DNA of 64,000 bases from an uncultured Gammaproteobacteria bacterium (lineage in GTDB: Bacteria > Patescibacteriota > Microgenomatia > Levybacterales > UBA12049). Below are positions 1 to 54,508 of the stretch, one piece after another. Under the pieces are notes generated by a model. That model saw only the letters and a program-made list of their open reading frames with translations, ran no database searches and was not told where the DNA came from. The DNA lies in contig CAZCCG010000002.1 in the NCBI GenBank assembly GCA_964497535.1, forward strand, positions 234,972-298,971, in the 5' to 3' direction. Made by a program: the position numbers and the translations under genes. Each line of letters starts with the position of its first letter. Positions within the stretch are counted from its first letter, which is position 1.

Positions 1-1327
1 GACCCTCATCGATCGTTGTCCTCCCATATAATCAAAAAATTTACCTGAGAAAAACGGAAAACTATAACAAATAATTGCGATACAAATTAATCCGTATAAA
101 AAATATACCTTATAGATATCTTTTATTTTCAATCGCTGTAGAACATAATCAATCATAATCCCTATGAGTACTGCATATGAAAACCATAGTGCCGGAGCAA
201 ATTTATAAAAAGGTGTACGAAATGCCAAAAACCCTGGAATAAAATTAACCATAAGAATATAAAAGATCCCAAAGGGAGGATGCGAACCTCCAATAAAAAT
301 CATTGAAAAAAGTGCGAGAAACGCAAAAAACAATATAAGAGTCCGTTTTTGTTTATCTTTTATAAGATACAACGGTAGAAATGCTACTACCGGCAGCATA
401 TAGCTGACAAAAATCAAAAAGGGATTTTGAAGATAACTATTTGAATATGGATGACCCGGGTTGTTATACCATTCAGGAATACCTTGTAACCGGAATAGAT
501 TAATTAAAGAACTGTCTTGACTGATATAACTTAACCAACCCAGTACTCCTCCAATTCCTCCTGCTTGAGTTACTGCTTTTGCAAAGGAGGTTTTTACGAA
601 ATAAATCATGGGAATAATCCAGTATGAATTCAAAACCAGACTTAATATCCCAACAGTAATTCCCAGTTGAATGAGGCGTACTATTCTTTTGAAAGAGAAT
701 TCTTTTATGAGATAAAAGATTGCAAAACAAAAGAGAGAAACCAGAAGCCCTCCATAGAGAGGTAAACTTCCTCCGCCATTGAGCAAGAATATGGTTAGGG
801 AAATAAGAATCCCTGTCAATAACGTATTTTTTTTACTATCTTCCCAATCCATTAAAAATGCGAAGATAAGCGGTACGGCTGCATAGAGAGAAAATTTGGT
901 GCGTTCAGCAATAAACCATCCCTGGAGAAGAAAATGATTAAACATAAAAAGGATTGACGCAGGCAAAGCAAAGTATTTTAACTCGAATCTTTTCTCCAAT
1001 TTGGAAGCAAAATAATACATGGCAAGCCCCGGCAAGAGGAACCAGAAAACGAATGTGATTTTTTGCTCGAGCTGAAGCGAAGCTCCAAAAGATGATACAA
1101 GAGCTTCAAGACCATGAATGGGAACTACCGGAAGAAAGATTGATTGATCTGTACCAAATCCCAGGCGGTCTGTCCAGGCAAGAATCCTGTCTTGAAAATG
1201 GGTGATTGGATCAAGTGGTAAACCAGTATCATGCCCTTGGATTACATAATTACCGTTAAACCACAACAGTGGAGTCAAGCCGATCAAGCAAATAATAATA
1301 AGTTCCACTACTTTACGCTTGTTCATA
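1..1327 (-). CDS. Polytopic membrane protein, partial (N-terminal 442 aa; C-terminus lies beyond window start). Not in the supplied ORF track, presumably because no stop codon falls inside the window. Possible GT-C-like/DUF3367-like transferase, family uncertain.
   Basis: Manual translation of the minus strand from ATG at 1325-1327 gives MNKRKVVELIIICLIGLTPLLWFNGNYVIQGHDTGLPLDPITHFQDRILAWTDRLGFGTDQS..., continuous to position 1 with no stop. Multiple hydrophobic segments. TATAAT-like box about 20 nt upstream. Confidence 0.6.
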
Positions 1328-1383
1328 TTCCTATAGTACTCATGCAATTATAGCAGGTTCTTTTTTCATAATATATTATTGTT

Positions 1384-3600
1384 TTAAAGGTAAGCCATTG
1401 TTTGAATAACCTTTTCAATCACCGAATTGTAATCTTCCGTACCATCCTCATTCATTTTTCGCTCAAAACCAGGCCCGGTGGCATAGATCTCAAGCGTTTT
1501 GTCATTTGTCTTATATCCTAAAAAATACATAGGATATTTACTGTTAGTTACATATACGGCGGTTTGGACATCGCTGTTGAACTGGGTAACAATACGAAAT
1601 GTAAAATGTTCCTCAATTGGGATATCTTCTGTATTGGATAACCCCGATGCAAATGTTGATACACCCATATTGTCAATCTTTTTATACAAAATTACATGTA
1701 TTTGGGTATCGTTATCGGGATCTGCTATGGTAACAGTTCGAATAACGGGACTATCTGGCCCTTGATCCAGATCCTGTTTTATCACCATATCAGGCGGGAA
1801 ACGGAAAGAAAAACCATATTTAGCATCTTTATAACTCTTCCATTTATTCATTTCTTGTAAAGTACCTAACCGGTCATATGCTTTTTTCCTGATCAGGTCT
1901 GTTACTTCGGTAATTTGATTCTTATTTCCATCCCAGGCAAATGCATAGACATCTGATGGATCTATTTTATGAGCCAAAATTTGATCCATCAGATGCCGCT
2001 CATCCAGATAATATCCAAATCCTTTCATACCGATTTGCTTATATCCTTCACCGGCAATCCCGCCTTTTGTTAAGTAGTTACTTGTAATGAATGCTAAAGA
2101 AAGCTGTTTTTTTTGATAATAAATAATAGTTAATATCTGCCCTAAATTTGTTTGGAATGGCGGAATAGGAGGAAAACCGTAGTAACCGAAGTTACTATTT
2201 ATATAAACGATTTTTTTATTTTGAGTCAAAGGCACCGTTTGTGTAATTTTATCAATAACAGTCCTGCGTTGATATCCTGTTATTGCTTCCGCAGTAAGCT
2301 CTTTTTGCAGGGTTATATAATTCAAAATAATCCAACTGACCACAAACAATATCAAGATAGCTTTCTCAGAAATCGGAATCAATCGGGATACCTTCTTTGA
2401 TGCCCACTGGCTGAAAGTAATACTTGCTAACGCCAGAAGAAGAACTCCCCCTACTGAGGCTTGATGAATATGACGTGAATCTATATAGGTAACATACCCC
2501 CATGAAGGTATAACAAATGCAATGGGGATTAATACTAAGGATGAAAGAATAATGATAAGAAATGAGAATAAGATTGTGATTCTTGTTTCTCTTCTTGAAT
2601 GAATATAAGCAACGATTGATACAACAATTATTATCGCTGCTAAGGAATAAATTATAGTATCGCTCCCTGCAGTTTGAGTAAATGTCAAATAATTAATACC
2701 TCCGATAGCTTTTTCTGCAGTATATTGTGGATATGCAAGGGTAGTAATGCTTTCCACAAAACCCAGTATCCAAGGGCCGGGAATAAAAACTTCAGTTACC
2801 ATTTTCAACGGATATGTAACTGCTCGAAATAGCAAAATATCCCAAGATAAAAGATGAAATGAAGCTGAATTATTTGTAGTTCCACTTACTAACAGGAATA
2901 TCTTTGGTAATAAAAAACGATAGGGAAGATATATGATAACGACCGGTAGATAATATTTGATGATTGAGATAAATTTTGTTTTTTTTATCTTAAGTATTGT
3001 AAGTATAGGAATAATAACAAACAAAATTGCTGTTGATTCTTTTGTTAAAAGTCCACAGAACATAAAGATTGCCGAATAAATCAGATTTCTTTTTTGTATC
3101 TCCTTTTCTTCAAATGCTTTGAAAAAATGTATAAGACAGAGAAGCAGGAATGCAAGAGATAACCCATTATATATATATGTCATTGCCCAGGTAATTGCTT
3201 GCTGGTGGACAAATGAACAGGCAAAAAAGATAGCGGATATAACTGCAACCTTCTCATTATTTCGGACTATTTTTTTAGCAAAAACGTATACGAGAATTGT
3301 ATCCAACATGTGAAGAATTAATCCACTAAGCGCATACAGCCAATAGGTAAAAGAGAAAGATTGAACGCTGAGAAAAAATAAGAGATTCGTTATGGGGGTA
3401 AGATGAGCACCTGCAGATATTGTATATGAATCTGCAACACTTTTGTACAAAATGATTAAGGGACCAAACCATGTATTAGTATAAGGTAAGGTTTGAATAA
3501 AGTAGTACCATTCATCTCCTTGGAAGTAGAGAACAAAGCTTCTCCAATAAAAAATAAGAATAAGAACTAGTAAGGCCAAAAAAAAATGAGGCTTTTTCAT
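1384..3600 (-). CDS. Large membrane protein (738 aa): N-terminal polytopic domain (about 12 TM) plus C-terminal soluble domain of about 330 aa. Putative GT-C-type glycosyltransferase, family unassigned.
   Basis: Long ORF. Hydrophobic N-terminal two-thirds, hydrophilic C-terminal third. 4-nt overlap with the upstream GT2 gene (3597-3600). Confidence 0.6.
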   Translation of the reverse strand: MKKPHFFLALLVLILIFYWRSFVLYFQGDEWYYFIQTLPYTNTWFGPLIILYKSVADSYTISAGAHLTPITNLLFFLSVQSFSFTYWLYALSGLILHMLDTILVYVFAKKIVRNNEKVAVISAIFFACSFVHQQAITWAMTYIYNGLSLAFLLLCLIHFFKAFEEKEIQKRNLIYSAIFMFCGLLTKESTAILFVIIPILTILKIKKTKFISIIKYYLPVVIIYLPYRFLLPKIFLLVSGTTNNSASFHLLSWDILLFRAVTYPLKMVTEVFIPGPWILGFVESITTLAYPQYTAEKAIGGINYLTFTQTAGSDTIIYSLAAIIIVVSIVAYIHSRRETRITILFSFLIIILSSLVLIPIAFVIPSWGYVTYIDSRHIHQASVGGVLLLALASITFSQWASKKVSRLIPISEKAILILFVVSWIILNYITLQKELTAEAITGYQRRTVIDKITQTVPLTQNKKIVYINSNFGYYGFPPIPPFQTNLGQILTIIYYQKKQLSLAFITSNYLTKGGIAGEGYKQIGMKGFGYYLDERHLMDQILAHKIDPSDVYAFAWDGNKNQITEVTDLIRKKAYDRLGTLQEMNKWKSYKDAKYGFSFRFPPDMVIKQDLDQGPDSPVIRTVTIADPDNDTQIHVILYKKIDNMGVSTFASGLSNTEDIPIEEHFTFRIVTQFNSDVQTAVYVTNSKYPMYFLGYKTNDKTLEIYATGPGFERKMNEDGTEDYNSVIEKVIQTMAYL

Positions 3601-4646
3601 TCTTTGTATCTATCTAAATGTCCCGTAAATAGATAATAGTAGTAGGAAAGTCGAACATGCCATGTAAGCTTGGGTAAAAATTCAGAATCAGGAATTTTTC
3701 TCATCGTAGTTTGTATTACTTTTCTTTTTGCCAGTGTTTCATTCAAGTGGATAATATTCCAGAATATTGCTTTTTGGATCCCCCATGACTCATTAAATTT
3801 AAACTTCGCCAAATATCCGAAGCTCGTAACTTCACAAAATATGAGATGTAGAGGTAAAACTGTCAAAATATTTTGTACTTCAAAGTTTTTTATATACGTA
3901 GCTATTCTATTTTTGAATGAGTTATATTGAATCCAGGCATAATTGATTCTTTTGGAAGTCCTTCCTCCTTTATGATAAATAGCTGTAGATGGCTCACACA
4001 ATACTTTATATCCACTCAGCCATACTCTATGACAAAGATCAGTTTCTTCAAAATATGCGAAATAATCTTTGTCAAAAATTCCAAGTTTTCCCACTTTTTT
4101 AATAACTTCCTTTTTGAAAAGCATACATGCCCCTTTCATAGAAAAAATTTCCTGTTTTTTGTTGAATTGTTTTTGATCTTTCTGATCATGACCATAATGA
4201 TAGAGAAATCCGCTGTTAAGGAAAAAAGATCCTACTGAATCAATTTTTTCTTTTTGAGGATATTGCAATATTTTCGGCATAACTGCACCTATAGTTGAAG
4301 AACTATAAAGTGTTTTTATAAGAATATCTATTACGTTTTTTTCGACTAATGTATCGTTACTGAGGAATAATATAGCATCACCTTTTGCTTGTAAAAACCC
4401 AACATCATTTCCTTCAGCAAATCCTAAATTCTCTTTATTTATAACAATTCTTGCAGAAGGATAATTTTTCTTAACGTATTCTACTGAATCATCTTTCGAT
4501 GCATTATCTACTACAATTACTTCTTTATTCTTGTAGGTAGTTTTATATACGGATTTCAAGCAATCTTCCAGGAGTTCTTTTCCGTTCCAGTTAACAATAA
4601 TAACGGATACAAGAGGATTAACCATGTTTTTGGATATATTTGTCAA
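3597..4646 (-). CDS. Glycosyltransferase family 2 (GT-A fold).
   Basis: N-terminal motif VSVIIVNWNGKELLEDCL...VIVVDNASKDDS...NLGFAEGNDVG, typical of the GT2 nucleotide-sugar binding domain. Confidence 0.85.
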   Translation of the reverse strand: MTNISKNMVNPLVSVIIVNWNGKELLEDCLKSVYKTTYKNKEVIVVDNASKDDSVEYVKKNYPSARIVINKENLGFAEGNDVGFLQAKGDAILFLSNDTLVEKNVIDILIKTLYSSSTIGAVMPKILQYPQKEKIDSVGSFFLNSGFLYHYGHDQKDQKQFNKKQEIFSMKGACMLFKKEVIKKVGKLGIFDKDYFAYFEETDLCHRVWLSGYKVLCEPSTAIYHKGGRTSKRINYAWIQYNSFKNRIATYIKNFEVQNILTVLPLHLIFCEVTSFGYLAKFKFNESWGIQKAIFWNIIHLNETLAKRKVIQTTMRKIPDSEFLPKLTWHVRLSYYYYLFTGHLDRYKE

Positions 4647-5949
4647 AAATTGAGGTTACATATTCAATATGTTTGTCTGTTAATCCTGGATATACTCCAA
4701 TAAAAAATGTGTTGGTAAAGGATAAATTTGAATTTGCCAGATCACCAATTTGTCTATGAGCTATATTTTTATATCCGGGTTGTCGCAAAATATTCCCTGC
4801 AAATATTGGTCTTGTTTGTATCATATGCTCTTCTAAAAATTGTGTTATTGCAAATCTATCAAAAGGGGCATCTGGACGAATCGTCATAGGGAAAGCAAAC
4901 CAACTGGGATCTGATTTTGGCATAGCCTCGGGTAAAATAAAATATTTTTCATACTTTTTGAAGAATTTCTTATAATGAGCAAAATTTTTCTTTCTTGCTA
5001 TAACAAACTCCGGAAGTCTTTTGATTTGGACCAAACCCATTGCTGCCTGTATTTCAACCGGTTTTATATTATAGCCAATATGTGAAAATATATATTTATG
5101 GTCATAGGGAATCCCATCGATATTATAGTTAAATCGGACACCGCAAACTCCATTTGTCCCTCCTCCTGAAGCTCCACACCAACAGGATCTTCCCCATTCC
5201 CTAATTGATTGGACAATTCTTTTCAGCCTTAAATTGTTGATAAAAACTGCTCCCCCTTCTCCAGCTGTAGTCATATGATGAGCGGGATAAAATGACTCTG
5301 CTGATAAAATTCCGAAAGATCCTGTCTTTTTCCCATTGTAGGTTGATCCTAATGCGTCACAGTTATCTTCCAAAACCAAAAGATTATTCCTATTTGCGAT
5401 TTCCATTATCGGATCCATGTCATTGGGATTACCCAACGTATGAACCAAAAAAATCATTTTTGTTTTTTTACCAATTGCTTTTTCTATATCTTCAGCTTTA
5501 GGATTCAAGGTATGCAGGTCTACATCTACAAAAACAGGCTTTAGTCCATTATGGACTAAGGCTGCAACAACGGCCGGAAACGTACAAGCTGGGGTTATTA
5601 CTTCGTCTCCTGGATTCAAATGCTCGGTAAACTGATACGACATTAAAGAAGCAACAGCTAATAAATCTGCAGAAGATCCAGAGTTGGTCAGATAAGCATG
5701 TTTTGCCCCCATATACTCGGCAAGTTCTTTTTCTAACTGTTCTCCCGCTTCACCCAAACCAAACCACCCCTTCAACATTACATCAACCATTGAGTTAAGT
5801 TCTTCACTTCCATAAACTGCTCCAGCATATCGTACCAAGCTTTTTCCGGGAATAAATTCTGGTTGGTCGATAGCCATATATTGCGAAATGGCTTTGTGGA
5901 TGGATTTAACCAGCGTATCTTTCTTTAAAGAAGAGTTCATAATAAACAT
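4618..5949 (-). CDS. rfbH: PMP-dependent 3-dehydrase of the DegT/RfbH family. Resembles CDP-6-deoxy-D-xylo-4-hexulose-3-dehydrase (E1/RfbH/DdhC). True start probably the internal Met at about 5940.
   Basis: 443 aa, longer than ordinary DegT aminotransferases. Active-site region SFYPAHHMTTAGEGG has His where transaminases have the PLP-binding Lys, as in E1/ColD. Cysteines C197, C256, C258, C269 form C-X58-C-X1-C-X10-C, close to the E1 [2Fe-2S] motif C-X57-C-X1-C-X7-C. LVHTLGNP motif also present. Confidence 0.6.
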   Translation of the reverse strand: MFIMNSSLKKDTLVKSIHKAISQYMAIDQPEFIPGKSLVRYAGAVYGSEELNSMVDVMLKGWFGLGEAGEQLEKELAEYMGAKHAYLTNSGSSADLLAVASLMSYQFTEHLNPGDEVITPACTFPAVVAALVHNGLKPVFVDVDLHTLNPKAEDIEKAIGKKTKMIFLVHTLGNPNDMDPIMEIANRNNLLVLEDNCDALGSTYNGKKTGSFGILSAESFYPAHHMTTAGEGGAVFINNLRLKRIVQSIREWGRSCWCGASGGGTNGVCGVRFNYNIDGIPYDHKYIFSHIGYNIKPVEIQAAMGLVQIKRLPEFVIARKKNFAHYKKFFKKYEKYFILPEAMPKSDPSWFAFPMTIRPDAPFDRFAITQFLEEHMIQTRPIFAGNILRQPGYKNIAHRQIGDLANSNLSFTNTFFIGVYPGLTDKHIEYVTSIFDKYIQKHG

Positions 5950-6033
5950 TTGTTATTGTACACCATTCCCTATATGTTGTAAATAATATGTTGAGGTTGT
6001 TGTTTGCGGTAGCTGAATTCTTGAGTTATAATA

Positions 6034-6993
6034 ATGTTAGATATGGCAAAGAAAAACTACATGGTGACTGGTGGACTTGGTCTTATTGGCTCAGCAATTG
6101 TTAATTCACTAACCGATCCAACCACTATCGTAACACGTTCAACCCGCAGAATGGACCGGTTAAAAAGAAAAGATGTAAAAATTATTGTAAAAAATATTAA
6201 TGATCTGACTCTTGAAGATCTAAAAGGTATTGATATTATTTACCACTGTGCAAGTAAACCCACAAATTATAATGTTCTTTCAGATCCATATATAGATATA
6301 CAAACAGATTTGGTTGGTACTGTACATATTTTAGAATTATGCAAGAACCTGAAAAAAAAACCACTTTTCATTTATTTTTCGACCTTCTTCGTATATGGAC
6401 ATACCTATGATAATACAAAAACTCCTATTAATGAGGAAAGTAAGACTGACCCACTTGCAATTTATCCTGCAACCAAACTCTGTGCGGAAAGCATCGTAAG
6501 ACTCTATGGAAAACTTCATCAAATGCCATATCTTATTTGTCGATTAACCAATGTATATGGAGAGCTTGAAGATTACAATAATAGTCAAAAAGGCGCATTA
6601 AACCTTCTGATTATGAAAGCAATCAAAGGTGAAGAATTAAAGATATATAATAATGGCAATTTCTATAGAGATTATATTCACGTTGATGATGTTGTCTCAG
6701 CCGTACGTTTTCTTGAAGAAAAACAACAATATGATACTCTCTATTTAATTGGGTATGGAAAACCGATCTTATTTAGTGAACTTATTCATACCATTAAAGA
6801 GCTAACTCATACTACTTCCGAAATCCATGCTGTAGAACCTCCTCCTTTTCATAAAGTTGTTGGTATGAACAATTTTGTCGCAGATACATCGAAGATTAAT
6901 AGATTGGGTTGGAAACCTAAGGTTACTCCAAAGGAAGGGATAGAAAAAATAGTAAAACAATATAAAGATCTTCTTACAAAAGATGTTGAATAA
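6034..6993 (+). CDS. NAD(P)-dependent epimerase/dehydratase (extended SDR). Possibly a nucleotide-sugar 4-reductase/epimerase partnering the RfbH-like enzyme.
   Basis: N-terminal Rossmann motif VTGGLGLIGSAIV. Catalytic YPATK (YxxxK). Divergently transcribed from the RfbH-like gene. Confidence 0.75.
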   Translation: MLDMAKKNYMVTGGLGLIGSAIVNSLTDPTTIVTRSTRRMDRLKRKDVKIIVKNINDLTLEDLKGIDIIYHCASKPTNYNVLSDPYIDIQTDLVGTVHILELCKNLKKKPLFIYFSTFFVYGHTYDNTKTPINEESKTDPLAIYPATKLCAESIVRLYGKLHQMPYLICRLTNVYGELEDYNNSQKGALNLLIMKAIKGEELKIYNNGNFYRDYIHVDDVVSAVRFLEEKQQYDTLYLIGYGKPILFSELIHTIKELTHTTSEIHAVEPPPFHKVVGMNNFVADTSKINRLGWKPKVTPKEGIEKIVKQYKDLLTKDVE

Positions 6994-8011
6994 GCCGATG
7001 ATAGGTATCCGGTTTTAAATAGGACTTAGCCTGATTAGCCGACCTTTCCAGCACTACTTTTCTGATTTCTTTTATAATAGGCCTGGGTAAAATTACTAAG
7101 CCAGTATATACGTAAAACATTGGATTGAATAACAACCTCTTATCGAGTGACACCATGCTCCATGCAACATGATAAGCATTTTCTATCGAAGTGAAATAAC
7201 GGATGTTGGTAATAAAAAACAAATTAGTAGTCAGATACTTTAATCTGAACTCTTCAAATGATGTTTTGTTTCTTATTTCTTTGTACGCTAACTCAATGAA
7301 ATCCCTCATGAAAAAACTCCCGTGTTTTTTGATATCAAAGTAAACAGGAAGCATTTCGAAACTCAGCCTTGCGATAATATATAAATCCGGGATATAGACG
7401 CACCCTTTTTTCTGGATGACATCAAAAAGTACAGGAAAATAAACAAACCCCATATGGTTTATCAGTTTTTTCGTATCTACAAATTCTTTTCTGAAAGTTA
7501 TTCCGGAAAAAAACCCAAAGTTAAAATCAAGCATGTCTAACAACACATTATGAGAAGCGCTGGGTTTGCGGGTTGTAACTTTTGTGAAATGTATAAATGA
7601 TTTCACTAGTGTATGTATATCGGTATCATAAGAGAATCCGCCAATTTTTCCTATTCCTACTCTTGTCTCATCCATAATTGTTTTAATTTTCTCAAATGTA
7701 TCGTCATATAAGATAAAATCATCATCTCCCAACGTGAAAACATAGGTTCCTTTCGCCACTTCAAATCCTTTAATTACTTTCAATGGATACCCCAAGTTTT
7801 TCTCGCTTTTATAATAACGAATATTTTTATTTTTGAATTTTTTTGTCAGGATTTCTATTGCATCAGTCTTTGTGTCATCCACAATGATAATTTCATAGGA
7901 TACGTTCTTCTGCGCGAGTACTGATTTTATTGCAATTCCTAAGTATTCCGGACGATAAGCAGGTATTATAACGCTAAAATCGACTCTTGAATCTCTTTCT
8001 TGTTTATTCAT
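6974..8011 (-). CDS. Glycosyltransferase family 2 with C-terminal extension.
   Basis: FSVIIPAYRPEYLGIAIKSVLAQ...YEIIIVDD GT2 signature. 345 aa. Confidence 0.8.
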   Translation of the reverse strand: MNKQERDSRVDFSVIIPAYRPEYLGIAIKSVLAQKNVSYEIIIVDDTKTDAIEILTKKFKNKNIRYYKSEKNLGYPLKVIKGFEVAKGTYVFTLGDDDFILYDDTFEKIKTIMDETRVGIGKIGGFSYDTDIHTLVKSFIHFTKVTTRKPSASHNVLLDMLDFNFGFFSGITFRKEFVDTKKLINHMGFVYFPVLFDVIQKKGCVYIPDLYIIARLSFEMLPVYFDIKKHGSFFMRDFIELAYKEIRNKTSFEEFRLKYLTTNLFFITNIRYFTSIENAYHVAWSMVSLDKRLLFNPMFYVYTGLVILPRPIIKEIRKVVLERSANQAKSYLKPDTYHRLIQHLL

Positions 8012-9161
8012 ATACGTCTAACTGCTTTAGATAATTTGAAAGTAATTCAGACATGTTATATTCATTTGCAAGTGCTATAGCGTGTTCTCTCATTTTCTGA
8101 TATTTGCCAGGATTATCTAAAACCATTAATAATTTTTCATATATATCCTTTTCGCTTAGGTCAACCTTCACTCCTGCATTTTTTTTCTCAAGTTCGTCTC
8201 CGATTCCGCTATTGCCTGAAATAAAAGCTGGTAAACCGGAAGCTAAATAATCTCTAACTTTCATAGGATCACTGAAATATCGAAAATGGGTTTTATCGGA
8301 ATTCTCATAAAATGCTATACCGATTGCACAACGAGTTATTAATTTAAACATATCATTATGTGATAATACTCCAACAAATTGAATTGTATTCTCCAACTTT
8401 TTTTCTTTTACATATTCTTTGAGAGTTCCTTCCAAACTACCGGTTCCAATAAGAACTAATGTTACATCTGGCAGTTTTTGTTTTAATTTTGCAACAACAT
8501 CGAACAATAACTCGAAAGCTATTCCTTTTTCCAACGCAGACACCAAGACTAATGAATGCTTTTGTATTTTACCGTAGGGGAACCGTTTTACTTCGTCAAA
8601 AAATGGCGCATTAGGAAGCAGTAAATTTCTTCCATTGTCTAAACCATTTTCTTTTCTATATAATTGTATTCTCTTTGATACACTCCAGGTTTGGTTAGAA
8701 TCCAACATTGCTTTCTTATCCAACCATAAATAAAAATTATTTAACATACTATTGGGAAACCGCAGGAGAGCAAAATCAGCGCTAAAGTAAATAGTTTTTC
8801 CCACAATTCCTATAGTTTTCAAGACATTTCCAGCAAATTCATTTAATGGATCGACACCGATAAAAAGCTGACATCTTTTGGCTTTTGATACTACAATCCA
8901 ACTGGTAATAAGAAACTCGTAAAAATATTGTAGAAAGACTAACCCTGCAATATTTTTTATATTTTCTGTCTTTGTTTTCTTACCATTCTTATAATACTCG
9001 ACAACTGAAGGACCAGTTCCATACAAGTTATGTTTGATAAATATATGTGTTATTTTCTTTTTGTTGAGAAAGAGAGATACAGCGTGAGGAGGTCCATAAA
9101 TATCTTTCCCATGGAGAAAAACCGCATGTGTAACAATTACTATCATTAAATCTCCTTCCAT
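8004..9161 (-). CDS. GT-B fold glycosyltransferase (GT4-like). Probable real start at the internal Met at about 9146.
   Basis: Length and C-terminal region (DYLASGLPAFISGNSGIGDEL) resemble the nucleotide-sugar binding half of GT1/GT4 enzymes. Weaker than the other GT4 calls. Confidence 0.55.
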   Translation of the reverse strand: MEGDLMIVIVTHAVFLHGKDIYGPPHAVSLFLNKKKITHIFIKHNLYGTGPSVVEYYKNGKKTKTENIKNIAGLVFLQYFYEFLITSWIVVSKAKRCQLFIGVDPLNEFAGNVLKTIGIVGKTIYFSADFALLRFPNSMLNNFYLWLDKKAMLDSNQTWSVSKRIQLYRKENGLDNGRNLLLPNAPFFDEVKRFPYGKIQKHSLVLVSALEKGIAFELLFDVVAKLKQKLPDVTLVLIGTGSLEGTLKEYVKEKKLENTIQFVGVLSHNDMFKLITRCAIGIAFYENSDKTHFRYFSDPMKVRDYLASGLPAFISGNSGIGDELEKKNAGVKVDLSEKDIYEKLLMVLDNPGKYQKMREHAIALANEYNMSELLSNYLKQLDVYE

Positions 9162-10072
9162 GCCGTATCAGAAAGAGGATGCATTTTAAAATGAATAAGC
9201 CCCTTTTGTACTTCTAATGGAATAATCTTTAATACTTGTTCCATTTTTGTTGTTACAAAACACGTGTTTTTAGGACGGGGAACAAAATTTTTGAAAAAAT
9301 CCAAAGTAACAGGATATAACATAGTACTATCTAATCCGAAAATCTCAGCGATATGTTTTGAAAAATCATATCTACTCATACATTCTTTTCCCGCAATATT
9401 AAAAGTTTCATCAATTTTTTCAAGCTCTATTGCTTTCCAGATGCTTTGTGCTGCCGACTCAACAGATAAGAAATTATTATACATATCGGTAACCATATTC
9501 ACGGGTGTTTTATTTTTCCCCATTATTTCCAAAAGCCACGTAAGAGGATTTTGCCGCTCATTCGGATTATTCCACCCATACATGGTAATAAGTCGAATAA
9601 CAATGTATGAAATTCCTGCGGACTTTGTCATCTTCTCTCCCTCATATTTGGTATATCCATAATAGTCAATTGGTCTTGGCTCTGCTTGTTCATCATAGGG
9701 AGCGTGCTCTCCATCATATATGCCATTGGTGGTGATATAGACCAGAGAACTTCCATATTTTTTACAGGCTTCGATAATGTTTTTTGTTCCGGTAATATTT
9801 ACTGCCTGCGCTTCATCTTTGTGTTTGTCACAATAATCGGGAGTTGCAATTGCCGCAGTATGGATAACAATATGGGGCTTAAATTCCGCAATAGCTTTTT
9901 CAACCATTGACTGATTTGTTATATCTACATGAAAGTACCTACAATCAACGTTTGGAACCAAATTGTTCTTATTATAAGAGGCGGCAAGCGTCACTCCTTG
10001 TGGAGCACTTCGTAAAAGTGTACTTCCTAATAACCCTGTAGATCCTGTTATAAATACTTTCATTGCAGACAT
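9146..10072 (-). CDS. dTDP-4-dehydrorhamnose reductase-like (RmlD-type) SDR.
   Basis: N-terminal KVFITGSTGLLGSTL Rossmann. YGYTKYEGEK matches the RmlD YGxTKxxGE catalytic motif. 308 aa. Confidence 0.6.
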   Translation of the reverse strand: MSAMKVFITGSTGLLGSTLLRSAPQGVTLAASYNKNNLVPNVDCRYFHVDITNQSMVEKAIAEFKPHIVIHTAAIATPDYCDKHKDEAQAVNITGTKNIIEACKKYGSSLVYITTNGIYDGEHAPYDEQAEPRPIDYYGYTKYEGEKMTKSAGISYIVIRLITMYGWNNPNERQNPLTWLLEIMGKNKTPVNMVTDMYNNFLSVESAAQSIWKAIELEKIDETFNIAGKECMSRYDFSKHIAEIFGLDSTMLYPVTLDFFKNFVPRPKNTCFVTTKMEQVLKIIPLEVQKGLIHFKMHPLSDTAWKEI

Positions 10073-10099
10073 GCCTCTTATTGTAGCATATGGATTTTA

Positions 10100-11917
10100 T
10101 CACTCAATAGATGAACTTTCCGGTATTTTCAGCCCACTCTTTTTTTCCAGTACTTTTGCAACTTCTGCTGTAAATGTGCTCAGTTCTTGTTGATCTACTT
10201 TCTTTTCCTTTTTATAAATAGTAATTTTACTTTTATCAAGAGGAACGTATATTCTTTTAATCATCTTAAAACTTGATAATAGATGATTGTCTTTGCCAAG
10301 TGACTGGAAAATTCCATCAAGTAAGGCATAATTTTGTGGGCCAAAATGATTATCTATAACAATGCCTGATTTGATTACAATGTAATTAGCATTTTCAAAA
10401 GAATGCTGTACCCGTGCAGTAACGACATCATAATTTGTGTAATTTGCTCCTACAAAATTATCGATTTGTATAGGTTTTAATCTATGGTATTCATTGAGAG
10501 AATACATTCCCAAATCTACCGGTCTATAACTAAATACTGTAACTACTAAAGGATCTTGAATATGAGATTTTTTGCTATCTTGCTCTATGAATCTGAGTAA
10601 TTCTTGTCCTTTGGCAACATTTTGTGTCGGCGCCCATACAACAGGCGCAAAATGAATCGTACGGGCATGTCCAAGTGGCATGGGAACTACCACAGAAGCA
10701 AGGCCACGATTCATAGGACCCACAGCCCATACTCCTCCCAGGAAATTACAAATACCATATACAACAATGAAAAAAACTATACTTATCCGCACTATTTTTT
10801 GTGGGATTACCAGGAAAATACTTGCTGATAAAATAGCTAGTATTGGGTACAGAGGAACAATGTAGCGGTCATCTTTTATGATTGTCCCGAATGAAAAAGC
10901 TAAATAGGGAAGCAAAAATGCTAAAAGGATGAATAACATTTTCTTCCAATGGATTATACTTGCGATAAAACCTGCTACAAAAAGGGCGAAAAAGAAAAAT
11001 GTAAGCTGCTCAAATACTTTAAAATAATAAGCAGCAGATTGCAATGAAAGATGATGCTGATAAGGCTTGGGTACCACAGTCCACAGTACTCCTCCTAATG
11101 CTTGGGACTTAAAATAATCACCAAAGAAAGTAGAAGCATTTAATACATAAGGTATAGAACCTGGAATAATTCCCAAAAGAATAATTAAAATTATATTATT
11201 AAAGGATTTGTTCCGTTGCTCTTTTGTTTGCCGGATTACCTGATATAAAACAAATATCAATGGTCCACCTACAAAAAGTGGTGTAACCCACCGAACAAAA
11301 ATTCCATATCCGAATGTTAATGCGAAGAGAATACTATAGTTGCGTCGGGTAAATAGCTTTGATTTCGCCAAAAAGAGCAATGACATAGTAACAAAACATG
11401 TGGTAGCAGTCTCAGAATAGGTGAAATGCAAATAGAACAGACTCCATCCATATGTTGTGAAAATAAATGATGCCACAAGTGCCCATTTTTTCCCCAAGAA
11501 TTCTTTTGCCAGAAAATAAACTCCCAGAATTGTTGTTACATACAATAACCCATTTACCCATAATCCCCATTTATACGAATTATCCAAACCAAATACTATG
11601 AGAAACGGCAGAATGATAAAGGAATATCCAGGTTGCCGAAAGGGTATAAATTCAATCATCTTCACAGGGGTATCTGTCGAAGGATTTTGAAGAAGCTTGT
11701 AAAAGCCAGTCGCCATCTCCATATAATGTTGTTCATCCATTTCAGGAGTCTGGTATGTCTGAAAGATATAGAGTGTATGACTTATTAGAATTATAAGAGA
11801 AATTAATAGAACTATACCAAGATATCGATCGAAGTGAGTAAAATATAAGTTTTTTATCTTTGCACTAATAGTTTCTTTTTTGATTCTTGCCTGGATTTGT
11901 TGTTTCTTCTTTTTCAT
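10100..11917 (-). CDS. Polytopic membrane protein with C-terminal soluble domain. GT-C-like (ArnT/PMT-type, DE motif in first loop).
   Basis: 605 aa. PEMDEQHYMEMATGF (DE motif) after TM1. About 11 hydrophobic segments. Hydrophilic C-terminal domain of about 180 aa. Confidence 0.6.
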   Translation of the reverse strand: MKKKKQQIQARIKKETISAKIKNLYFTHFDRYLGIVLLISLIILISHTLYIFQTYQTPEMDEQHYMEMATGFYKLLQNPSTDTPVKMIEFIPFRQPGYSFIILPFLIVFGLDNSYKWGLWVNGLLYVTTILGVYFLAKEFLGKKWALVASFIFTTYGWSLFYLHFTYSETATTCFVTMSLLFLAKSKLFTRRNYSILFALTFGYGIFVRWVTPLFVGGPLIFVLYQVIRQTKEQRNKSFNNIILIILLGIIPGSIPYVLNASTFFGDYFKSQALGGVLWTVVPKPYQHHLSLQSAAYYFKVFEQLTFFFFALFVAGFIASIIHWKKMLFILLAFLLPYLAFSFGTIIKDDRYIVPLYPILAILSASIFLVIPQKIVRISIVFFIVVYGICNFLGGVWAVGPMNRGLASVVVPMPLGHARTIHFAPVVWAPTQNVAKGQELLRFIEQDSKKSHIQDPLVVTVFSYRPVDLGMYSLNEYHRLKPIQIDNFVGANYTNYDVVTARVQHSFENANYIVIKSGIVIDNHFGPQNYALLDGIFQSLGKDNHLLSSFKMIKRIYVPLDKSKITIYKKEKKVDQQELSTFTAEVAKVLEKKSGLKIPESSSIE

Positions 11918-12009
11918 TCTGAGTGCATACTGCTCGGCAATTATACTATATTTTATGAGCTTGTTCGTATTGCAATTAAAAACGTGCTCAACTATAATTT
12001 CCTCAACAG

Positions 12010-13503
12010 ATGAATTTATTATTAGCTTTTCTCATCCCAATTCTAAGTTTTATTCTTCAATCCTACCCACGATTATTTAATAAATTGTTCGGCGTAGATG
12101 TATGGACTAGACTTCTGGAAACAGAGCATATTCGAAAAAATCACCATACTGTTCCCAATTACAAACTTGAAGATCAATTTATTATTGATGGATATTTTGA
12201 TTATCCACCCGTATTCCCTACGCTTCTTTCTTTTTTCCCCAAAAAAACCTTACTTCATATCCAGGGATTTGTAGCTCCATTTTTTGATGCGCTTCAAGTA
12301 CTCTTGGTTTATTATGTGACCTATTACCTAACCGGTAATGTTCAAGTATCACTTCTGGCACAACTGATGTATATGATGACCCCCATGATTGCTATTGAAA
12401 ATAGCTATCTTACTCCCCGGTCTTTGGGATATCTCAATTTTACACTCGCGGTTTTACCTCTGGTTTTGTACTACTATAGTCATCAACCGATATTTTTCCT
12501 TCTTGGAATTATCTTTACATTTCTACTTTTTTTGACTCATCGCTTTGCTATTCAATCATTCTTTTTTATCATGATATTCTTTACGTTCTTCCTTAATACT
12601 CCCATCTTTTTCCAAAGCTTTGTAATTGGTTTTGCGCTCGCGTTACTTATTACAAAAGGCTATTACCTGCGAGTTCTCAAAGGTCATTTATACAATATCT
12701 ATTTTTGGGTAAAGAATTTGGATTACCGGTTTGCCCATCAGATCCGTGGTATCTCCAAAAAAAGCGCAAAAAAGGATTTGATTGAAAGAATATACCAGTT
12801 CCTCACAGTGTTCTCACCGATTGCGGTTTTTGGGCTCAATCCCTGGAGCTTAAGCGGATTTCTTATTCCTCTTGCATTTTATTTTGCGCTCTTACCTGTG
12901 TCTCCAATTCTTCTGACCCTTGCTGCTTGGATTCTTTTCTTTTATGTATTAGGAGTCGTTGTATTAAAAACCAAACAGCTCATGCCAATCGGCGAAGGAC
13001 AACGCTATATGGAAATGGCAACTGTTCCCTCCTCAATTCTCTCTTCATATATATTCTTCCAACTATTAAATACGCAATTTAAAACTCCGGCCGTTATTAT
13101 TCTAGTTGCATTACTACTTTTCACTTTTGTACTGATTATCGTTATCCAAATTAAAGGTGTCATCAAGGATCGTAACAGAAGTATTACAGAAGACTTGGTA
13201 AACATATTTGAATATATTAATAAACAAAAAGATACGATGCGCATCGTATGCATCCCTCACCAAAATACAACAATGACTGTCTATCATACCAAGGCACAAG
13301 TGTTAGTAAACGCAGATAACCCTGGGCTTATGAGGATTCAGGATGTGTATCCGATTTTAAGAATGCCGGTTAAGGAACTTGCCAAGAAATATCATCTTAC
13401 CCATGCATTAGTCAAAGAAAGCTTTGCCACGCTTAAGGAATTAGGCCTATCTCAAAAAGATGTAATTTTTTCATCAGGGGATGTCCTCCTTGTTCAACTG
13501 TAA
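12010..13503 (+). CDS. Polytopic membrane protein (497 aa) with C-terminal soluble region. Function unknown. Shares a YMEMAT motif with its divergent neighbour.
   Basis: Long ORF, many hydrophobic segments. GEGQRYMEMATV near residue 330. Confidence 0.55.
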   Translation: MNLLLAFLIPILSFILQSYPRLFNKLFGVDVWTRLLETEHIRKNHHTVPNYKLEDQFIIDGYFDYPPVFPTLLSFFPKKTLLHIQGFVAPFFDALQVLLVYYVTYYLTGNVQVSLLAQLMYMMTPMIAIENSYLTPRSLGYLNFTLAVLPLVLYYYSHQPIFFLLGIIFTFLLFLTHRFAIQSFFFIMIFFTFFLNTPIFFQSFVIGFALALLITKGYYLRVLKGHLYNIYFWVKNLDYRFAHQIRGISKKSAKKDLIERIYQFLTVFSPIAVFGLNPWSLSGFLIPLAFYFALLPVSPILLTLAAWILFFYVLGVVVLKTKQLMPIGEGQRYMEMATVPSSILSSYIFFQLLNTQFKTPAVIILVALLLFTFVLIIVIQIKGVIKDRNRSITEDLVNIFEYINKQKDTMRIVCIPHQNTTMTVYHTKAQVLVNADNPGLMRIQDVYPILRMPVKELAKKYHLTHALVKESFATLKELGLSQKDVIFSSGDVLLVQL

Positions 13504-13507
13504 TAAT

Positions 13508-14227
13508 CTAACCAAGGTCAGTCCAGCGAAAAGTTAGGTGCGAATCTACAATTTTAAATCCACACGTTCCATAAGCTCTCAAAGCAGGAATATTCCCCAT
13601 TTGTGTTTCTATAGTAAGTTTTTCTATATTCCACTTTTTAAAATACGCAAAAGACTCCTGGATAAGTTTTTTTGCGGTTCCTTTTCCTCTGGCATCTTTT
13701 GAAACAGCTATTAATGGAATATGACCGTTTCTTGAGAGTGTCAAAAATCCCAAAATAGTATCTTCTTCTGTATATATCAAAACAGTATCTGCTGCTTCAC
13801 CTTTTATGGAATTCTCAATCCACTTACCGTAAAGCTCGTCTGCTTTTTCTTTTTGAATTACAGAATCATTGTAGAATCTATTGAGTTCAAATGATGTTTG
13901 CGCAATGTGCTTGAGCTTTTCCAAATCTTCCAGGCTGGCCGGATGAATATACTCCGATTTGGTTTTTGGAGCCTCAAATTGTGTTAACTCCAAACTAATC
14001 AGACCATCAACCAACCGAAACACATGATCTTCAAGGCTATGAATCAGTTTAAAATCATTTGCATGGACTCGATATGTCGCGTAGCGGACGTGCTCTTTTT
14101 TTAAATTCTCAACTAACTCCGAAATGGTAGCGTCAACATCTCCTAAAGATTCTATAGTGGTTATTTTTGCAACAGCAAAACCAAATAAGGTTGTGTCAAA
14201 TAACTGAGGTTCAAATGAATAGTTCAT
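13508..14227 (-). CDS. GNAT-family N-acyltransferase, WecD/TDP-fucosamine acetyltransferase-like (N-terminal domain plus C-terminal GNAT fold).
   Basis: C-terminal IAVSKDARGKGTAKKLIQES...NIPALRAYGTCGFKIV matches the GNAT acetyl-CoA binding motif (R/Q-x-x-G-x-G/A). 4-nt overlap with the upstream aminotransferase gene. Confidence 0.75.
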   Translation of the reverse strand: MNYSFEPQLFDTTLFGFAVAKITTIESLGDVDATISELVENLKKEHVRYATYRVHANDFKLIHSLEDHVFRLVDGLISLELTQFEAPKTKSEYIHPASLEDLEKLKHIAQTSFELNRFYNDSVIQKEKADELYGKWIENSIKGEAADTVLIYTEEDTILGFLTLSRNGHIPLIAVSKDARGKGTAKKLIQESFAYFKKWNIEKLTIETQMGNIPALRAYGTCGFKIVDSHLTFRWTDLG

Positions 14228-15378
14228 TTGCGATATTTTTTAACTAAAGCGCCGATTGTCTCGATAATATAGGTAACATCATCCTCACTCATTCCAGGAT
14301 ATAGAGGCAGAGAAATCAACCCTTCAAAAGTCTTATCGGTAACAGGGAACATCTTTTTGTCAATATCAAAATTCTTTTTGTAATACGTGAATAAATAGAG
14401 AGGGATGTAATATACTGTGGCACCGATTCCTGCCTCTTTTAACTCTTCCATAAAAGCATTTCGGTCAATCTTTAGCATGCTTGTCTCCAGTTGAATCGAG
14501 TAAATATTGCGTGCATGTTTTATATTCTTCCCAACATAGGGAGTTATAATCTCAGGAATTTGGGAAAATGCTTTATCATATAGTGCTGCATACTTCTCTC
14601 TGGTTTTTATAAAACCATCCAATTTGGCAAGTTGATGAATTCCCAAGGCTGCCGAAATATCGGTCATATTATATTTAAAACCTGCATCCACAATATCATA
14701 GAGCCATGACCCTGCTGCTGAATGTCTTTTCCACGCGTCTTTACTCATGCCATGCAACCGAAGCTCCGACAATCTCCCAGCATACTGCTCGTTGTTTGTG
14801 GTAACTACTCCTCCATCCCCTGTTGACATATTTTTGACAGGATGAAATGAAAAGCAGGTTAAGTCGGATATTGCACCAATCTTTTTCCCTTTATATTCTG
14901 CTCCGATTGCAGTTGCAGCATCTTCAATAAGAATAAGATTATGTTTTTTTGCAATTTTGCGAAGCTGGTCATAATTACACGGTTGTCCTCCATAATCCAT
15001 TGGCATAATTGCTTTTGTGTTTTTGGTAATTTTTGCTTCGATCAAATCGGGATTTATATTAAGCGTTTGTGGATCAATATCGACAAATACCGGAGTAGCA
15101 CCGCTATGGATGATTGTGTTGGGAGTAGCAGCCATTGTAAATATTGTTGTGATTACCTCATCACCTTTCTCAATTCCTGCTGCCAAAAGAGAGATATGAA
15201 GTGCTGCTGTACAGGAAGTTACAGCTATAGCATATTTGGATCCAACATATTTTTTGATTCGTTCTTCAAAATCCTTTGTCCTTGGGCCGAGTGTTACCCA
15301 TCCTGAATCAAGAGCTGCCAAAACCTCATCTTTTTCTTCTTTTCCAAATACCGGCTGAGCATAATGAATATATTTCAT
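14224..15378 (-). CDS. DegT/DnrJ/EryC1/StrS-family PLP-dependent sugar aminotransferase (nucleotide-4-keto-6-deoxyhexose transaminase type).
   Basis: QPVFGKEEKDEVLAALDSGWVTLGPRTKDFEERI N-terminus. SFHPVKNMSTGDGGVV with the canonical PLP-Lys. 384 aa. Confidence 0.85.
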   Translation of the reverse strand: MKYIHYAQPVFGKEEKDEVLAALDSGWVTLGPRTKDFEERIKKYVGSKYAIAVTSCTAALHISLLAAGIEKGDEVITTIFTMAATPNTIIHSGATPVFVDIDPQTLNINPDLIEAKITKNTKAIMPMDYGGQPCNYDQLRKIAKKHNLILIEDAATAIGAEYKGKKIGAISDLTCFSFHPVKNMSTGDGGVVTTNNEQYAGRLSELRLHGMSKDAWKRHSAAGSWLYDIVDAGFKYNMTDISAALGIHQLAKLDGFIKTREKYAALYDKAFSQIPEIITPYVGKNIKHARNIYSIQLETSMLKIDRNAFMEELKEAGIGATVYYIPLYLFTYYKKNFDIDKKMFPVTDKTFEGLISLPLYPGMSEDDVTYIIETIGALVKKYRK

Positions 15379-16466
15379 AGATTTTCCAAAACTTGAAGGG
15401 CAATTCGTGCTGTATTATCCCAATTATACACTTTTGCTAAAACGATTGCATTATGTTGTAATAGTTGATAAAGATTTTTATCTCGTAATAATCGTACTGT
15501 TTTACTAGCCAGATCTGATGGATTCTTATAAGCCAAAAGTCCTGTCTTTTCATCTTGAATAACATCTCGACTGCCGGATACATCATATGCAACTGAAGGT
15601 GTCCCCATATATCCTGCTTCAGGAATTACCAAACCCCACCCTTCATGAACAGATGGCATCAAAAGGATATGAGCCTTACCTAATAATTCAAACTTTTTCT
15701 CTTCAGATACGAATCCCCAAAAGACGGTATCATTTTTCATGTTTAAGTTCGTAACTTTATTTTTCAAATACTCTAAATAATCTTTCTGTCCTGACCCAAC
15801 AAGCCACAGTTTTGCAGATGAAATTTCTAAATGGATTTTTGAAAACGCATCAATAACATCCTCAACACCTTTTTGTTTATTCATCCTTCCTAAATAAATA
15901 ACAGTAGGATTTTTCTCTTTTTTTTGTAGAGATATTCCCTTGGGAAGAGACAATCCCATTGGGATAACGGTTATATTTTGGGCAGAAAAACCTTCTCCAA
16001 CAAGATCCTTCTTTGTTGAATCCGAGATAGCTAATGTTGGGACATTTCTATAATAAGATACATATATTTTTTCAATTGATCTCCAAAATGCAGAAAGAGG
16101 AAAGGAAAAGATATTAGGAAAAAGATTTTTTGCCACCTCGCATGCAAGTAGTACTGTTTTTTTATTGTAAACTTTACTGAAAAATGGAAACCAATGTACT
16201 TCATCTATTACAACATCAGTATTATTTTTCAAACTAAGAAAGTAGTAAAAAAATGCCAGAATATGTACATTCCACCATTGACCTTTTCTGATAAATCGTA
16301 CGCCATCGATTATTTCATTCTCTTGTGCTCCTGGAAATTTTGAAGAGAATTGAGTAACTCTATTTCCCCATTTTACCCATCGCTTTGCCATCTCGTGAGT
16401 GAGTATCTCTGCACCTCCACCTGCTGGATTTTTGATATCGCGCCAATTAAGAATTAAAATATTCAT
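15375..16466 (-). CDS. Glycosyltransferase family 4 (GT-B).
   Basis: PSVHEGWGLVIPEAGYMGTPSVAYDVSG is a classic E-x7-E motif region. Confidence 0.85.
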   Translation of the reverse strand: MNILILNWRDIKNPAGGGAEILTHEMAKRWVKWGNRVTQFSSKFPGAQENEIIDGVRFIRKGQWWNVHILAFFYYFLSLKNNTDVVIDEVHWFPFFSKVYNKKTVLLACEVAKNLFPNIFSFPLSAFWRSIEKIYVSYYRNVPTLAISDSTKKDLVGEGFSAQNITVIPMGLSLPKGISLQKKEKNPTVIYLGRMNKQKGVEDVIDAFSKIHLEISSAKLWLVGSGQKDYLEYLKNKVTNLNMKNDTVFWGFVSEEKKFELLGKAHILLMPSVHEGWGLVIPEAGYMGTPSVAYDVSGSRDVIQDEKTGLLAYKNPSDLASKTVRLLRDKNLYQLLQHNAIVLAKVYNWDNTARIALQVLENL

Positions 16467-16472
16467 AAGAAG

Positions 16473-21745: not shown

Positions 21746-21766
21746 ATACTCTCCCTCTATTATACC

Positions 21767-24645: not shown

Positions 24646-24665
24646 AAAACTCCCTAAATAGCATG

Positions 24666-26171: not shown

Positions 26172-26207
26172 AGTCGAATTGTAAGCAAACCCTGCAATAA
26201 AAGCAAC

Positions 26208-30956: not shown

Positions 30957-31008
30957 GTAAATAAACTCATGATTATTATAGCATTCTTATTTTTAGTATG
31001 GTACTATA

Positions 31009-34182: not shown

Positions 34183-34183
34183 A

Positions 34184-35859: not shown

Positions 35860-35861
35860 AG

Positions 35862-39232: not shown

Positions 39233-39291
39233 CTTTTAATTTTACCACAACTATTTAATTTAGTTGACATGAGCCACCTTTTGACCTTTTT

Positions 39292-39546: not shown

Positions 39547-39567
39547 AAAAGTTAGCTCAAATTACAT

Positions 39568-40320: not shown

Positions 40321-40321
40321 A

Positions 40322-43827: not shown

Positions 43828-43848
43828 AGGTTCTCTAAGGATTAATTT

Positions 43849-44766: not shown

Positions 44767-44767
44767 G

Positions 44768-50430: not shown

Positions 50431-50434
50431 GAAG

Positions 50435-51949: not shown

Positions 51950-52017
51950 ATTTTATTCTTCGAACGAAGTGAGAAGTAAATCGTAATAGTTCTCGCTGAC
52001 ACTCGAACAATATGTAC

Positions 52018-54500: not shown

Positions 54501-54508
54501 CTAAAATT

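Follow-up and report, generated by a model that had tools for sequence, protein, structure and literature searches.

The 64-kb stretch of contig CAZCCG010000002.1 analysed here (64,000 nucleotides at its full length, referred to as the window; G+C ~35%) carries a gene, rfbH, for a DegT-family protein that has His where aminotransferases have the Schiff-base Lys, together with four cysteines spaced much as in E1, the [2Fe-2S] CDP-6-deoxy-L-threo-D-glycero-4-hexulose-3-dehydrase also named AscC, DdhC or RfbH. The question raised by this locus is whether the protein is a functional E1-type 3-dehydrase and, if so, with which partners and on which nucleotide sugar it would act. An earlier, sequence-only reading had proposed 3,6-dideoxyhexose chemistry; the enzyme class in that proposal stands, while the CDP (cytidine diphosphate) linkage and the choice of sugar are not decidable from the window. 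We consider it likely that rfbH encodes a functional E1/RfbH 3-dehydrase, that its product is reduced at C4 by a neighbouring short-chain dehydrogenase/reductase (SDR) and transferred by a family 2 glycosyltransferase (GT2), and that the genes for precursor supply and electron transfer lie elsewhere in the genome.

The rfbH product and its E1-type residues

The rfbH gene (4618..5949, minus strand), for a nucleoside diphosphate (NDP)-4-keto-6-deoxyhexose 3-dehydrase, is an open reading frame (ORF) whose translation has 443 aa. A start at 5940 instead yields the 440-aa NCBI product HSW98149.1, which begins at Met4, is identical to the window protein from that residue onwards and is named "lipopolysaccharide biosynthesis protein RfbH". 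A script run on the translation places AHH at residues 223-225 and cysteines at positions 122, 197, 256, 258 and 269, with the spacing C197-X58-C256-X1-C258-X10-C269; the ORF length, the AHH motif and the C-X58-C-X1-C-X10-C pattern given by the sequence-only reading thus match exactly, and the codons have been located. Family scans with Pfam and NCBIfam covered every window ORF of at least 100 aa. They bear out the proposed DegT-family membership (Pfam DegT_DnrJ_EryC1, PF01041, 293 bits) and, more narrowly, the E1-type assignment, since the protein passes the RfbH equivalog NF011936 with 527.5 bits, where the cut-off is 423, and covers positions 5-438 of the 440 in the profile, the second-best NCBIfam model being PseC at 183 bits. 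E1 also ranks best by sequence and by fold. The top sequence match in the PDB is E1 of Yersinia pseudotuberculosis (3bcx; E=2e-122, 412 bits, residues 12-439, 46% identity).

At the positions that matter for catalysis and cluster binding, the alignment with Yersinia E1 leaves no gaps in the set. The first His of AHH (H224; codon 5278..5280, minus strand, position verified) falls on the catalytic E1 His220, which stands in the place of the Schiff-base Lys and has been mutated to Lys in entry 3bb8 (H220K). All four cysteines coincide with E1 cysteines: C197 (codon 5359..5361, minus strand, verified), the predicted first [2Fe-2S] ligand, aligns with C193 in an invariant column, and the Cys256-X-Cys258-X10-Cys269 loop (5143..5184, minus strand), predicted to provide ligands 2-4, aligns with C251, C253 and C261. 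The E1 positions in the alignment agree with the published motif C-X57-C-X1-C-X7-C; the assignment of the [2Fe-2S] ligands is attributed to Agnihotri et al. 2004. Relative to Yersinia E1 the cluster loop of the window protein contains a 3-residue insertion ahead of the last Cys, so that X10 rather than X7 separates the third and fourth cysteines. Residues C197, H224, H225, C256, C258 and C269 do not vary in two family alignments, of 16 and 30 members, with Yersinia E1 included in one of them, and this argues that the motif did not arise by chance. D198, Y221 and F351, which are invariant in the family alignment as well, correspond to E1 D194, Y217 and F345, residues that together with H220 we take to be the dehydrase signature. 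A DegT paralogue encoded in the window (14224-15378), used as a control, has Lys in the H224 column, His in the Y221 column and 0/4 of the cysteines. Two homologues from bacteria of the candidate phyla radiation (CPR), P0029 and P0057, have Ser for the first Cys ligand (EDNSD for EDNCD) and keep the CxC-X10-C loop; the substitution may reflect altered cluster ligation or sequence errors.

The fold is in line with the alignment. An AlphaFold model from 30 homologues (predicted local distance difference test (pLDDT) 88.2, predicted template modelling score (pTM) 0.85; cofactor-free) retrieves E1 (3bb8/3bcx) at the first rank in Foldseek, with TMq 0.89, TMt 0.94 and 44% identity. Residues 253-290, which include the cluster loop, are of low confidence (pLDDT <50), as expected of a model without cofactor. 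Because the loop is longer than in E1 and the model confidence there is low, binding of a [2Fe-2S] cluster is a prediction drawn from the aligned cysteines. At the sequence level, the protein is a member of the E1 family and carries all of its catalytic and cluster residues.

The divergent SDR, the GT2 and the proposed pathway

Next to rfbH and transcribed away from it, as the sequence-only reading had noted, lies the gene for an extended SDR of 319 aa (6034..6993, plus strand; Pfam Epimerase, 133 bits), the measured intergenic region being 84 bp long (5950..6033, not assigned to a strand). This spacer contains a sigma-70-like site, TTTACA-17-TACAAT (5983-5955, minus strand), which is weak evidence for a promoter; promoter-like sites are not enriched in the scanned region (17 found against 17.2 expected from shuffles). 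The NCBI counterpart of the SDR, HSW98150.1, starts at Met4, has 316 aa and is named 'NAD(P)-dependent oxidoreductase'. We predict the protein to be an NADPH-dependent NDP-4-keto-3,6-dideoxyhexose 4-reductase. It has the coenzyme-binding motif GGLGLIG (GxxGxxG), S116/T117, the Y144-x3-K148 dyad and YPATK, and at the site where 4,6-dehydratases have (S/T)-D-(E/K) it carries STFFVYG; (S/T)-D-E is typical of the 4,6-dehydratases, with D-K in CDP-glucose dehydratase. Since the dehydratase motif is absent and the scores against the dehydratase models fall far under their cut-offs (TIGR01181 (RmlB), 130 bits against 365; TIGR02622, 35 bits against 278), the SDR is ruled out as the 4,6-dehydratase that is missing from the window. 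The extra SDRs found in locus L005 were rejected for the same role by their motif and by sub-threshold scores.

What the SDR might do instead is suggested by its coenzyme site. A basic TRSTRR follows strand β2, with no acidic residue, and TR(S/T)xx(K/R) recurs in five orthologues. By the general SDR coenzyme rule a basic patch after β2 indicates an NADP(H) reductase, not an epimerase with bound NAD+, which favours a reductase using NADP(H) for the window protein as well. Database names are of little help: the best solved relatives in the PDB are generic epimerases and dehydratases at no more than 106 bits, headed by the UDP-glucose 4-epimerase 4zrm, and the homologue search with the SDR returned generic names only, with no curated family matched. 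Because the E1 product needs reduction at C4, a role as the 4-ketoreductase is plausible and is the most economical one that we infer from motifs and gene order. The suggestion of a possible 4-reductase in the sequence-only reading therefore gains from the missing dehydratase motif, the NADP-type patch and the retention of the gene beside rfbH, while the role itself is still a deduction. The SDR resembles RfbS (CDP-paratose synthase) and RfbJ (CDP-abequose synthase) in the GxxGxxG motif, the S/T-Y-K triad, the NADP-type patch and the 3-dehydrase neighbour; it differs from them in matching no curated family.

On the other side of rfbH, a GT2 gene (3597..4625, minus strand; Pfam Glycos_transf_2, 87 bits) encodes 342 aa from the ATG at 4625, the longest ORF extending to 4646, and its start shares 8 nt with the rfbH stop (ATGGTTAA). 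The GT2 stop in turn overlaps by 4 nt the gene of a 738-aa membrane protein (1384..3600, minus strand) that has 10 transmembrane (TM)-like segments and no family match in the Pfam/NCBIfam scans of the ORF. Given these overlaps of 8 and 4 nt, the three genes would be co-translated and form one operon. From the conserved gene order described below we predict that the GT2 is the dideoxyhexose transferase, and the 3-dehydrase, the 4-reductase and the transferase probably constitute one cassette.

The mechanism of the E1 family, in which a pyridoxamine 5'-phosphate (PMP) Schiff base undergoes cluster-mediated one-electron reductions, has been reviewed (PMC8987622). In the window protein PMP would form a Schiff base with the 4-keto group of an NDP-4-keto-6-deoxy-D-hexose, His224 would take the C4' proton as the 3-OH departs, and the resulting glucoseen-PMP adduct would be reduced by two single electrons via the C197/C256/C258/C269 cluster, leading to release of NDP-4-keto-3,6-dideoxyhexose. 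Reduction of the C4 keto group by the SDR with NADPH would then yield the NDP-3,6-dideoxyhexose, which the GT2 would place into a cell-surface glycan made by the 54-kb island that surrounds the cassette, with electrons supplied by an E3-like or a general ferredoxin/flavodoxin system encoded elsewhere. The 3-dehydrase steps are proposed because the catalytic and ligand residues are conserved, and the 4-reduction and transfer steps because the gene order is. The nucleotidyltransferase and the 4,6-dehydratase that would supply the substrate, like the electron system, are presumed to be encoded elsewhere in the genome.

Neighbourhoods of rfbH in other genomes and the rival explanations

The gene order was compared by clustering 1357 ORFs from 89 rfbH loci and annotating the cluster representatives with NCBIfam. 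After removal of duplicates 71 loci have a recognisable E1-type Cys loop, besides which L022 has an X12 loop. The distance from CxC to the last Cys is 7 residues in 55/71 loci, 9 in 7/71 and 10 in 9/71; the window protein has X10, a spacing that appears from the sequences to mark a subclade. The extended-loop loci differ in their neighbours. RfbF (glucose-1-phosphate cytidylyltransferase) lies within 10 kb of rfbH in 39/55 X7 loci against 4/16 X9/X10 loci (Fisher p 0.001), RfbG (CDP-glucose 4,6-dehydratase) in 36/55 against 4/16 (Fisher p 0.009), and a reductase resembling ferredoxin-NADP+ reductase (FNR) directly follows rfbH in 13/55 against 0/16 (Fisher p 0.03), although these adjacency counts are noisy, many loci being on short contigs. 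Cytidylyltransferase and dehydratase genes are nevertheless found in part of this group and of the CPR loci: X9/X10 loci L021, L029 and L038 carry RfbF and RfbG, the Patescibacteria locus L087 has RfbF and RfbG near rfbH, and in the CPR locus L091 a glucose-1-phosphate cytidylyltransferase is encoded ~3 kb from the cassette.

Within the CPR the cassette itself is well kept. An orthologue of the SDR adjoins rfbH in 7/7 CPR loci with orthologues (the window, L003, L005, L009, L090, L091 and L092), with 57-64% identity among them, and an orthologue of the GT2 (cluster 12) directly follows rfbH in 5/7 (the window, L005, L009, L090 and L092). The rfbH protein is 72-77% identical to its orthologues in several CPR genomes with the same gene neighbours, which argues for purifying selection on rfbH. 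The closest relative outside the CPR among the matches listed (53% identity) is encoded by an uncultured archaeon (L010, CAZSGV010000003.1, 8270-17424), where the order is RmlA-like, rfbH, SDR and RmlB (470 bits against a cut-off of 365); its SDR, at 34% identity, is again beside rfbH, and the cluster-12 GT2 flanks rfbH there too. This suggests a cassette common to CPR bacteria and DPANN-like archaea. A further RfbH-like gene in L010 shows the Cys pattern C-x-C-x2-C-x9-C and AHA for AHH.

Two further kinds of neighbour were seen. In 13-16 loci of other phyla (L033, L035, L037, L043, L051, L052, L057, L061 and L073-L076; at ~11230-12550 in each) the gene directly after rfbH encodes a short FNR-like flavin reductase of 226-269 aa with no ferredoxin domain. 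The classical E3 has ~330 aa and an N-terminal [2Fe-2S] domain, and the short reductase may be a truncated E3 type. In 20-24 loci (L016, L034, L050 and L068 among them) the neighbourhood of rfbH includes a thiamine pyrophosphate (TPP)-dependent gene that resembles the one for the large subunit of acetolactate synthase. Its product may be a YerE-like enzyme and the gene a marker of branched-chain 3,6-dideoxy sugars of the yersiniose type, in which case such chemistry would reach far beyond Yersinia.

Set beside the E1 systems of Yersinia pseudotuberculosis and Salmonella (3BCX/3BB8), the window protein is alike over its full length, in fold, in the His and four Cys and in the equivalents of D194, Y217 and F345. 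The gene differs in having no adjacent ddhA (RfbF), ddhB (RfbG) or ddhD/ascD (E3), in being paired with a different, CPR-specific SDR and GT2, and in residing in a CPR host with no lipopolysaccharide context. The substrate nucleotide is probably CDP: the RfbH equivalog is passed, a cytidylyltransferase is present in L091, and RfbF and RfbG occur together in L087, L021, L029 and L038. It could instead be dTDP (deoxythymidine diphosphate), as hinted by the RmlA-like and RmlB flanks in L010 and by the RmlD-, WecE- and WecD-like enzymes of the window island, which normally draw on dTDP-4-keto-6-deoxyglucose.

Several findings weigh against the pathway proposed here. As the sequence-only reading had stated, no cytidylyltransferase, 4,6-dehydratase or E3/FNR-like reductase is encoded in the 64-kb window according to the Pfam/NCBIfam scans, which likewise find no sugar-1-phosphate nucleotidyltransferase of any kind there; tblastn of the window with 24 RfbF, RfbG and FNR-like queries from other rfbH loci returned generic SDRs only, at no more than 30% identity. 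The 64-kb window likewise lacks any small ORF of ferredoxin type, and a Logan contig that extends 5 kb beyond its left end contributes membrane and glycosyltransferase genes only. The SDR scores under all NCBIfam curated cut-offs and is only 22-35% identical to the SDRs adjoining rfbH in other lineages, so its regiochemistry is a guess; the archaeal cassette of L010 is flanked by RmlA-like and RmlB genes, not by CDP-pathway genes; and the cluster loop, which exceeds that of characterised E1 by 3 residues, lies in the part modelled at pLDDT <50.

How far these points favour another explanation depends on the level at which the explanation applies. At the level of the enzyme, the protein might be a 3-dehydratase of the ColD type, which needs no reductase, or else a DegT aminotransferase of the ordinary kind, with cysteines that are incidental. 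ColD (GDP-4-keto-6-deoxy-D-mannose 3-dehydratase of the colitose pathway; 2GMS/3B8X) does share the DegT fold, the Pfam family, the His for Lys and the first half-reaction, but it has no Fe-S cluster and regenerates PMP with glutamate. In the same PDB search that gave 412 bits for E1, the ColD entries score 198 bits and sugar aminotransferases at most 160, and in Foldseek ColD (0.79) and the perosamine synthases rank behind E1. The four E1 cysteines are all kept and invariant in the clade, ColD having no Cys opposite C256, C258 and C269, and an aminotransferase is further opposed by the lack of Lys at the Schiff-base position. Grouping with ColD or with ordinary transaminases, which the sequence-only reading had named as the outcome that would overturn it, is thus not what is found: by sequence the protein belongs with E1, and the ColD or aminotransferase reading has next to no probability. 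At the level of the gene, rfbH could be an orphan or relic in a reduced genome that has neither precursor supply nor electron donor and makes no 3,6-dideoxyhexose, consistent with the absence of partner genes within ~69 kb. We regard this as very improbable, as the ORF is intact, every catalytic and ligand residue is kept, the identity to CPR orthologues with the same neighbours is high, and the gene is translationally coupled to those downstream.

The more serious rivals concern partners and substrate. The divergent SDR may be an epimerase (tyvelose-2-epimerase- or 5-epimerase-like) or belong to another branch, with C4 reduced by a different SDR such as the RmlD-like protein (9146-10072) encoded only 2 kb away in the window. 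Its best solved relatives are indeed UDP-glucose 4-epimerases (4zrm, 106 bits), and in L005 and L092 a short SDR with an RmlD_sub_bind match, 23% identical to the RmlD-like protein of the window, adjoins the rfbH-associated SDR. We think this rather unlikely given that the basic patch in the five orthologues is typical of NADP(H) reductases and that the SDR is the sole one that always adjoins rfbH in the CPR clade, L003 having no second SDR within 10 kb of rfbH. A credible alternative, if not a probable one, is that the system works in the manner of SpnQ, with the same chemistry on a dTDP substrate from RmlA/RmlB and with a general ferredoxin or flavodoxin and reductase in place of E3; it would differ from the pathway favoured here in substrate and partners, not in enzyme class. 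SpnQ of Saccharopolyspora spinosa (TDP-4-keto-2,6-dideoxy-D-glucose 3-dehydrase), like the UrdQ-type enzymes, is an E1-family protein with PMP and [2Fe-2S] that has no E3 gene in its cluster, as here, and uses general ferredoxin/flavodoxin reductase pairs (PMC8987622); no dedicated reductase of the E3 or FNR kind adjoins any X9/X10 rfbH. The scarcity of RfbF and RfbG and the 0/16 for FNR-like reductases among the extended-loop loci, the L010 gene order with its RmlB, and the fit of the RmlD-, WecE- and WecD-like genes of the island with the use of dTDP-4-keto-6-deoxyglucose all point the same way. Against it stand the pass of the RfbH (CDP-type) equivalog, the cytidylyltransferase genes near rfbH in CPR loci L091 and L087, the CDP-type precursor genes adjacent to rfbH in extended-loop loci outside L010 (L021, L029, L038), the noise that short contigs bring into the adjacency counts, and the fact that RmlA and RmlB in L010 may serve only a rhamnose-type branch of that cluster. 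SpnQ itself belongs to antibiotic pathways and has a 2,6-dideoxy TDP-sugar as its substrate, and no 2,3-dehydratase or 3-ketoreductase gene is seen in the window; the likeness to SpnQ is drawn from its description. An E1/RfbH 3-dehydrase followed by SDR and GT2, with CDP as the probable nucleotide, is therefore the explanation that we retain. A bolder version, in which the extended-loop E1 proteins of CPR and DPANN form a lineage that moves as one self-contained 4-reductase/3-dehydrase/GT2 cassette, with no dedicated E3 and possibly dTDP sugars, amounting to a previously undescribed variant of the classical pathway in nucleotide and electron donor, is put forward tentatively and with some doubt.

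The surrounding island, its host and the reach of the family

The cassette is embedded in a glycosylation island (1..54015, minus strand) delimited by the family scans. The island encodes ~20 polytopic membrane proteins with 6-13 TM-like segments, of which at least 10 have GT-C Pfam matches (PMT_2, YfhO or PTPS_related) and some form a tandem run of GT-C-type genes at 24666-34182, along with many GT2 and GT4 glycosyltransferases, a Wzx-like flippase (44768-46225) and a GalE that scores over its cut-off (20765-21745). The RmlD-like SDR, a second candidate 4-reductase of 308 aa (9146..10072, minus strand), reaches 167 bits with TIGR01214, below the cut-off of 224, and 173 bits with Pfam RmlD_sub_bind. 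A WecD-like GNAT protein (13508-14227, minus strand) and a WecE-like DegT aminotransferase (14224-15378, minus strand), the latter an ordinary Lys-containing enzyme by family scan and alignment, form a pair (13508..15378) that is a 4-amino-4,6-dideoxyhexose branch and likewise needs an NDP-4-keto-6-deoxyhexose. Multi-TM proteins with no Pfam/NCBIfam match are encoded at 1384-3600, 12010-13503, 17273-19719, 22338-23900, 29469-30956, 40322-43827, 48700-50430 and 52018-53229, and may represent unrecognised CPR-specific GT-C, polymerase or ligase-like families. With more than 50 kb, the island accounts for a very large part of the genome, whose expected size is <1 Mb.

The right edge of the island is marked by a tRNA-Glu(CTC) gene (54428-54501), and G+C is 0.31-0.38 inside it and 0.39-0.43 beyond 56 kb (56000-64000). 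A Lon fragment at 62385-63998 is 79% identical to Lon (L003:13748-16117) of the complete Levyibacteriota genome CP066685.1, in which the rfbH/SDR pair follows a comparable run of GT-C genes, with lon a few kb away, in synteny with the window. Judging by its sequence, the organism is best placed among the Microgenomates, close to the Levyibacteria. The metagenome-assembled genome that contains HSW98149.1, on a 310-kb contig, bears the label Candidatus Saccharimonadales, which is doubtful, being either wrong or very loose. Horizontal transfer of the island, considered in view of the G+C step at 56 kb and the tRNA-Glu gene, is unnecessary given the Lon identity and the synteny with Levyibacteriota, and because the region is syntenic vertical inheritance is favoured.

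The reach of the family qualifies the novelty of the locus. The homologue search with the rfbH protein gave at least 8000 scored candidates, all with E of 1e-30 or lower, and the closest among the matches listed (55-78% identity) belong to CPR bacteria of Levyi, Gottesman, Roizman or Microgenomates type. When one genome per species was scanned, at least 600 rfbH stretches came up, 599 of which were confirmed, in taxa that include Chloroflexota, Verrucomicrobiota, Bacteroidota, Proteobacteria, Actinomycetota, methanogens and Pacearchaeota. The E1/RfbH family is ubiquitous across bacteria and archaea, many CPR genomes included, so that the sequence-only reading overstated its case in calling such a pathway unusual for a small AT-rich genome, and at the gene level this chemistry is no rarity beyond Salmonella and Yersinia; automatic annotation had already named the gene RfbH, correctly, and it is a member of a large, well-understood family. 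The literature search found no paper tying CPR or Patescibacteria to RfbH or dideoxyhexoses. Three features are modestly new: the extended-loop subclade, the conservation of its reductase and GT2 cassette among CPR bacteria and in one archaeon, and the fact that no dedicated genes for the precursor or for E3 lie close by.

With the gene already annotated and its family ubiquitous, the practical gain is modest. The locus would be sequence-level evidence that CPR bacteria with genomes of <1 Mb invest in radical Fe-S deoxysugar chemistry for their surface glycans. If the reading of an extended-loop lineage is true, ultrasmall bacteria and archaea that live as episymbionts would carry a 3,6-dideoxyhexose in these glycans. 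Sugars of this kind act in enterobacteria as strong determinants of antigenicity and as phage receptors, and on the surface of an episymbiont they could influence how it attaches to its host or is recognised by phages.

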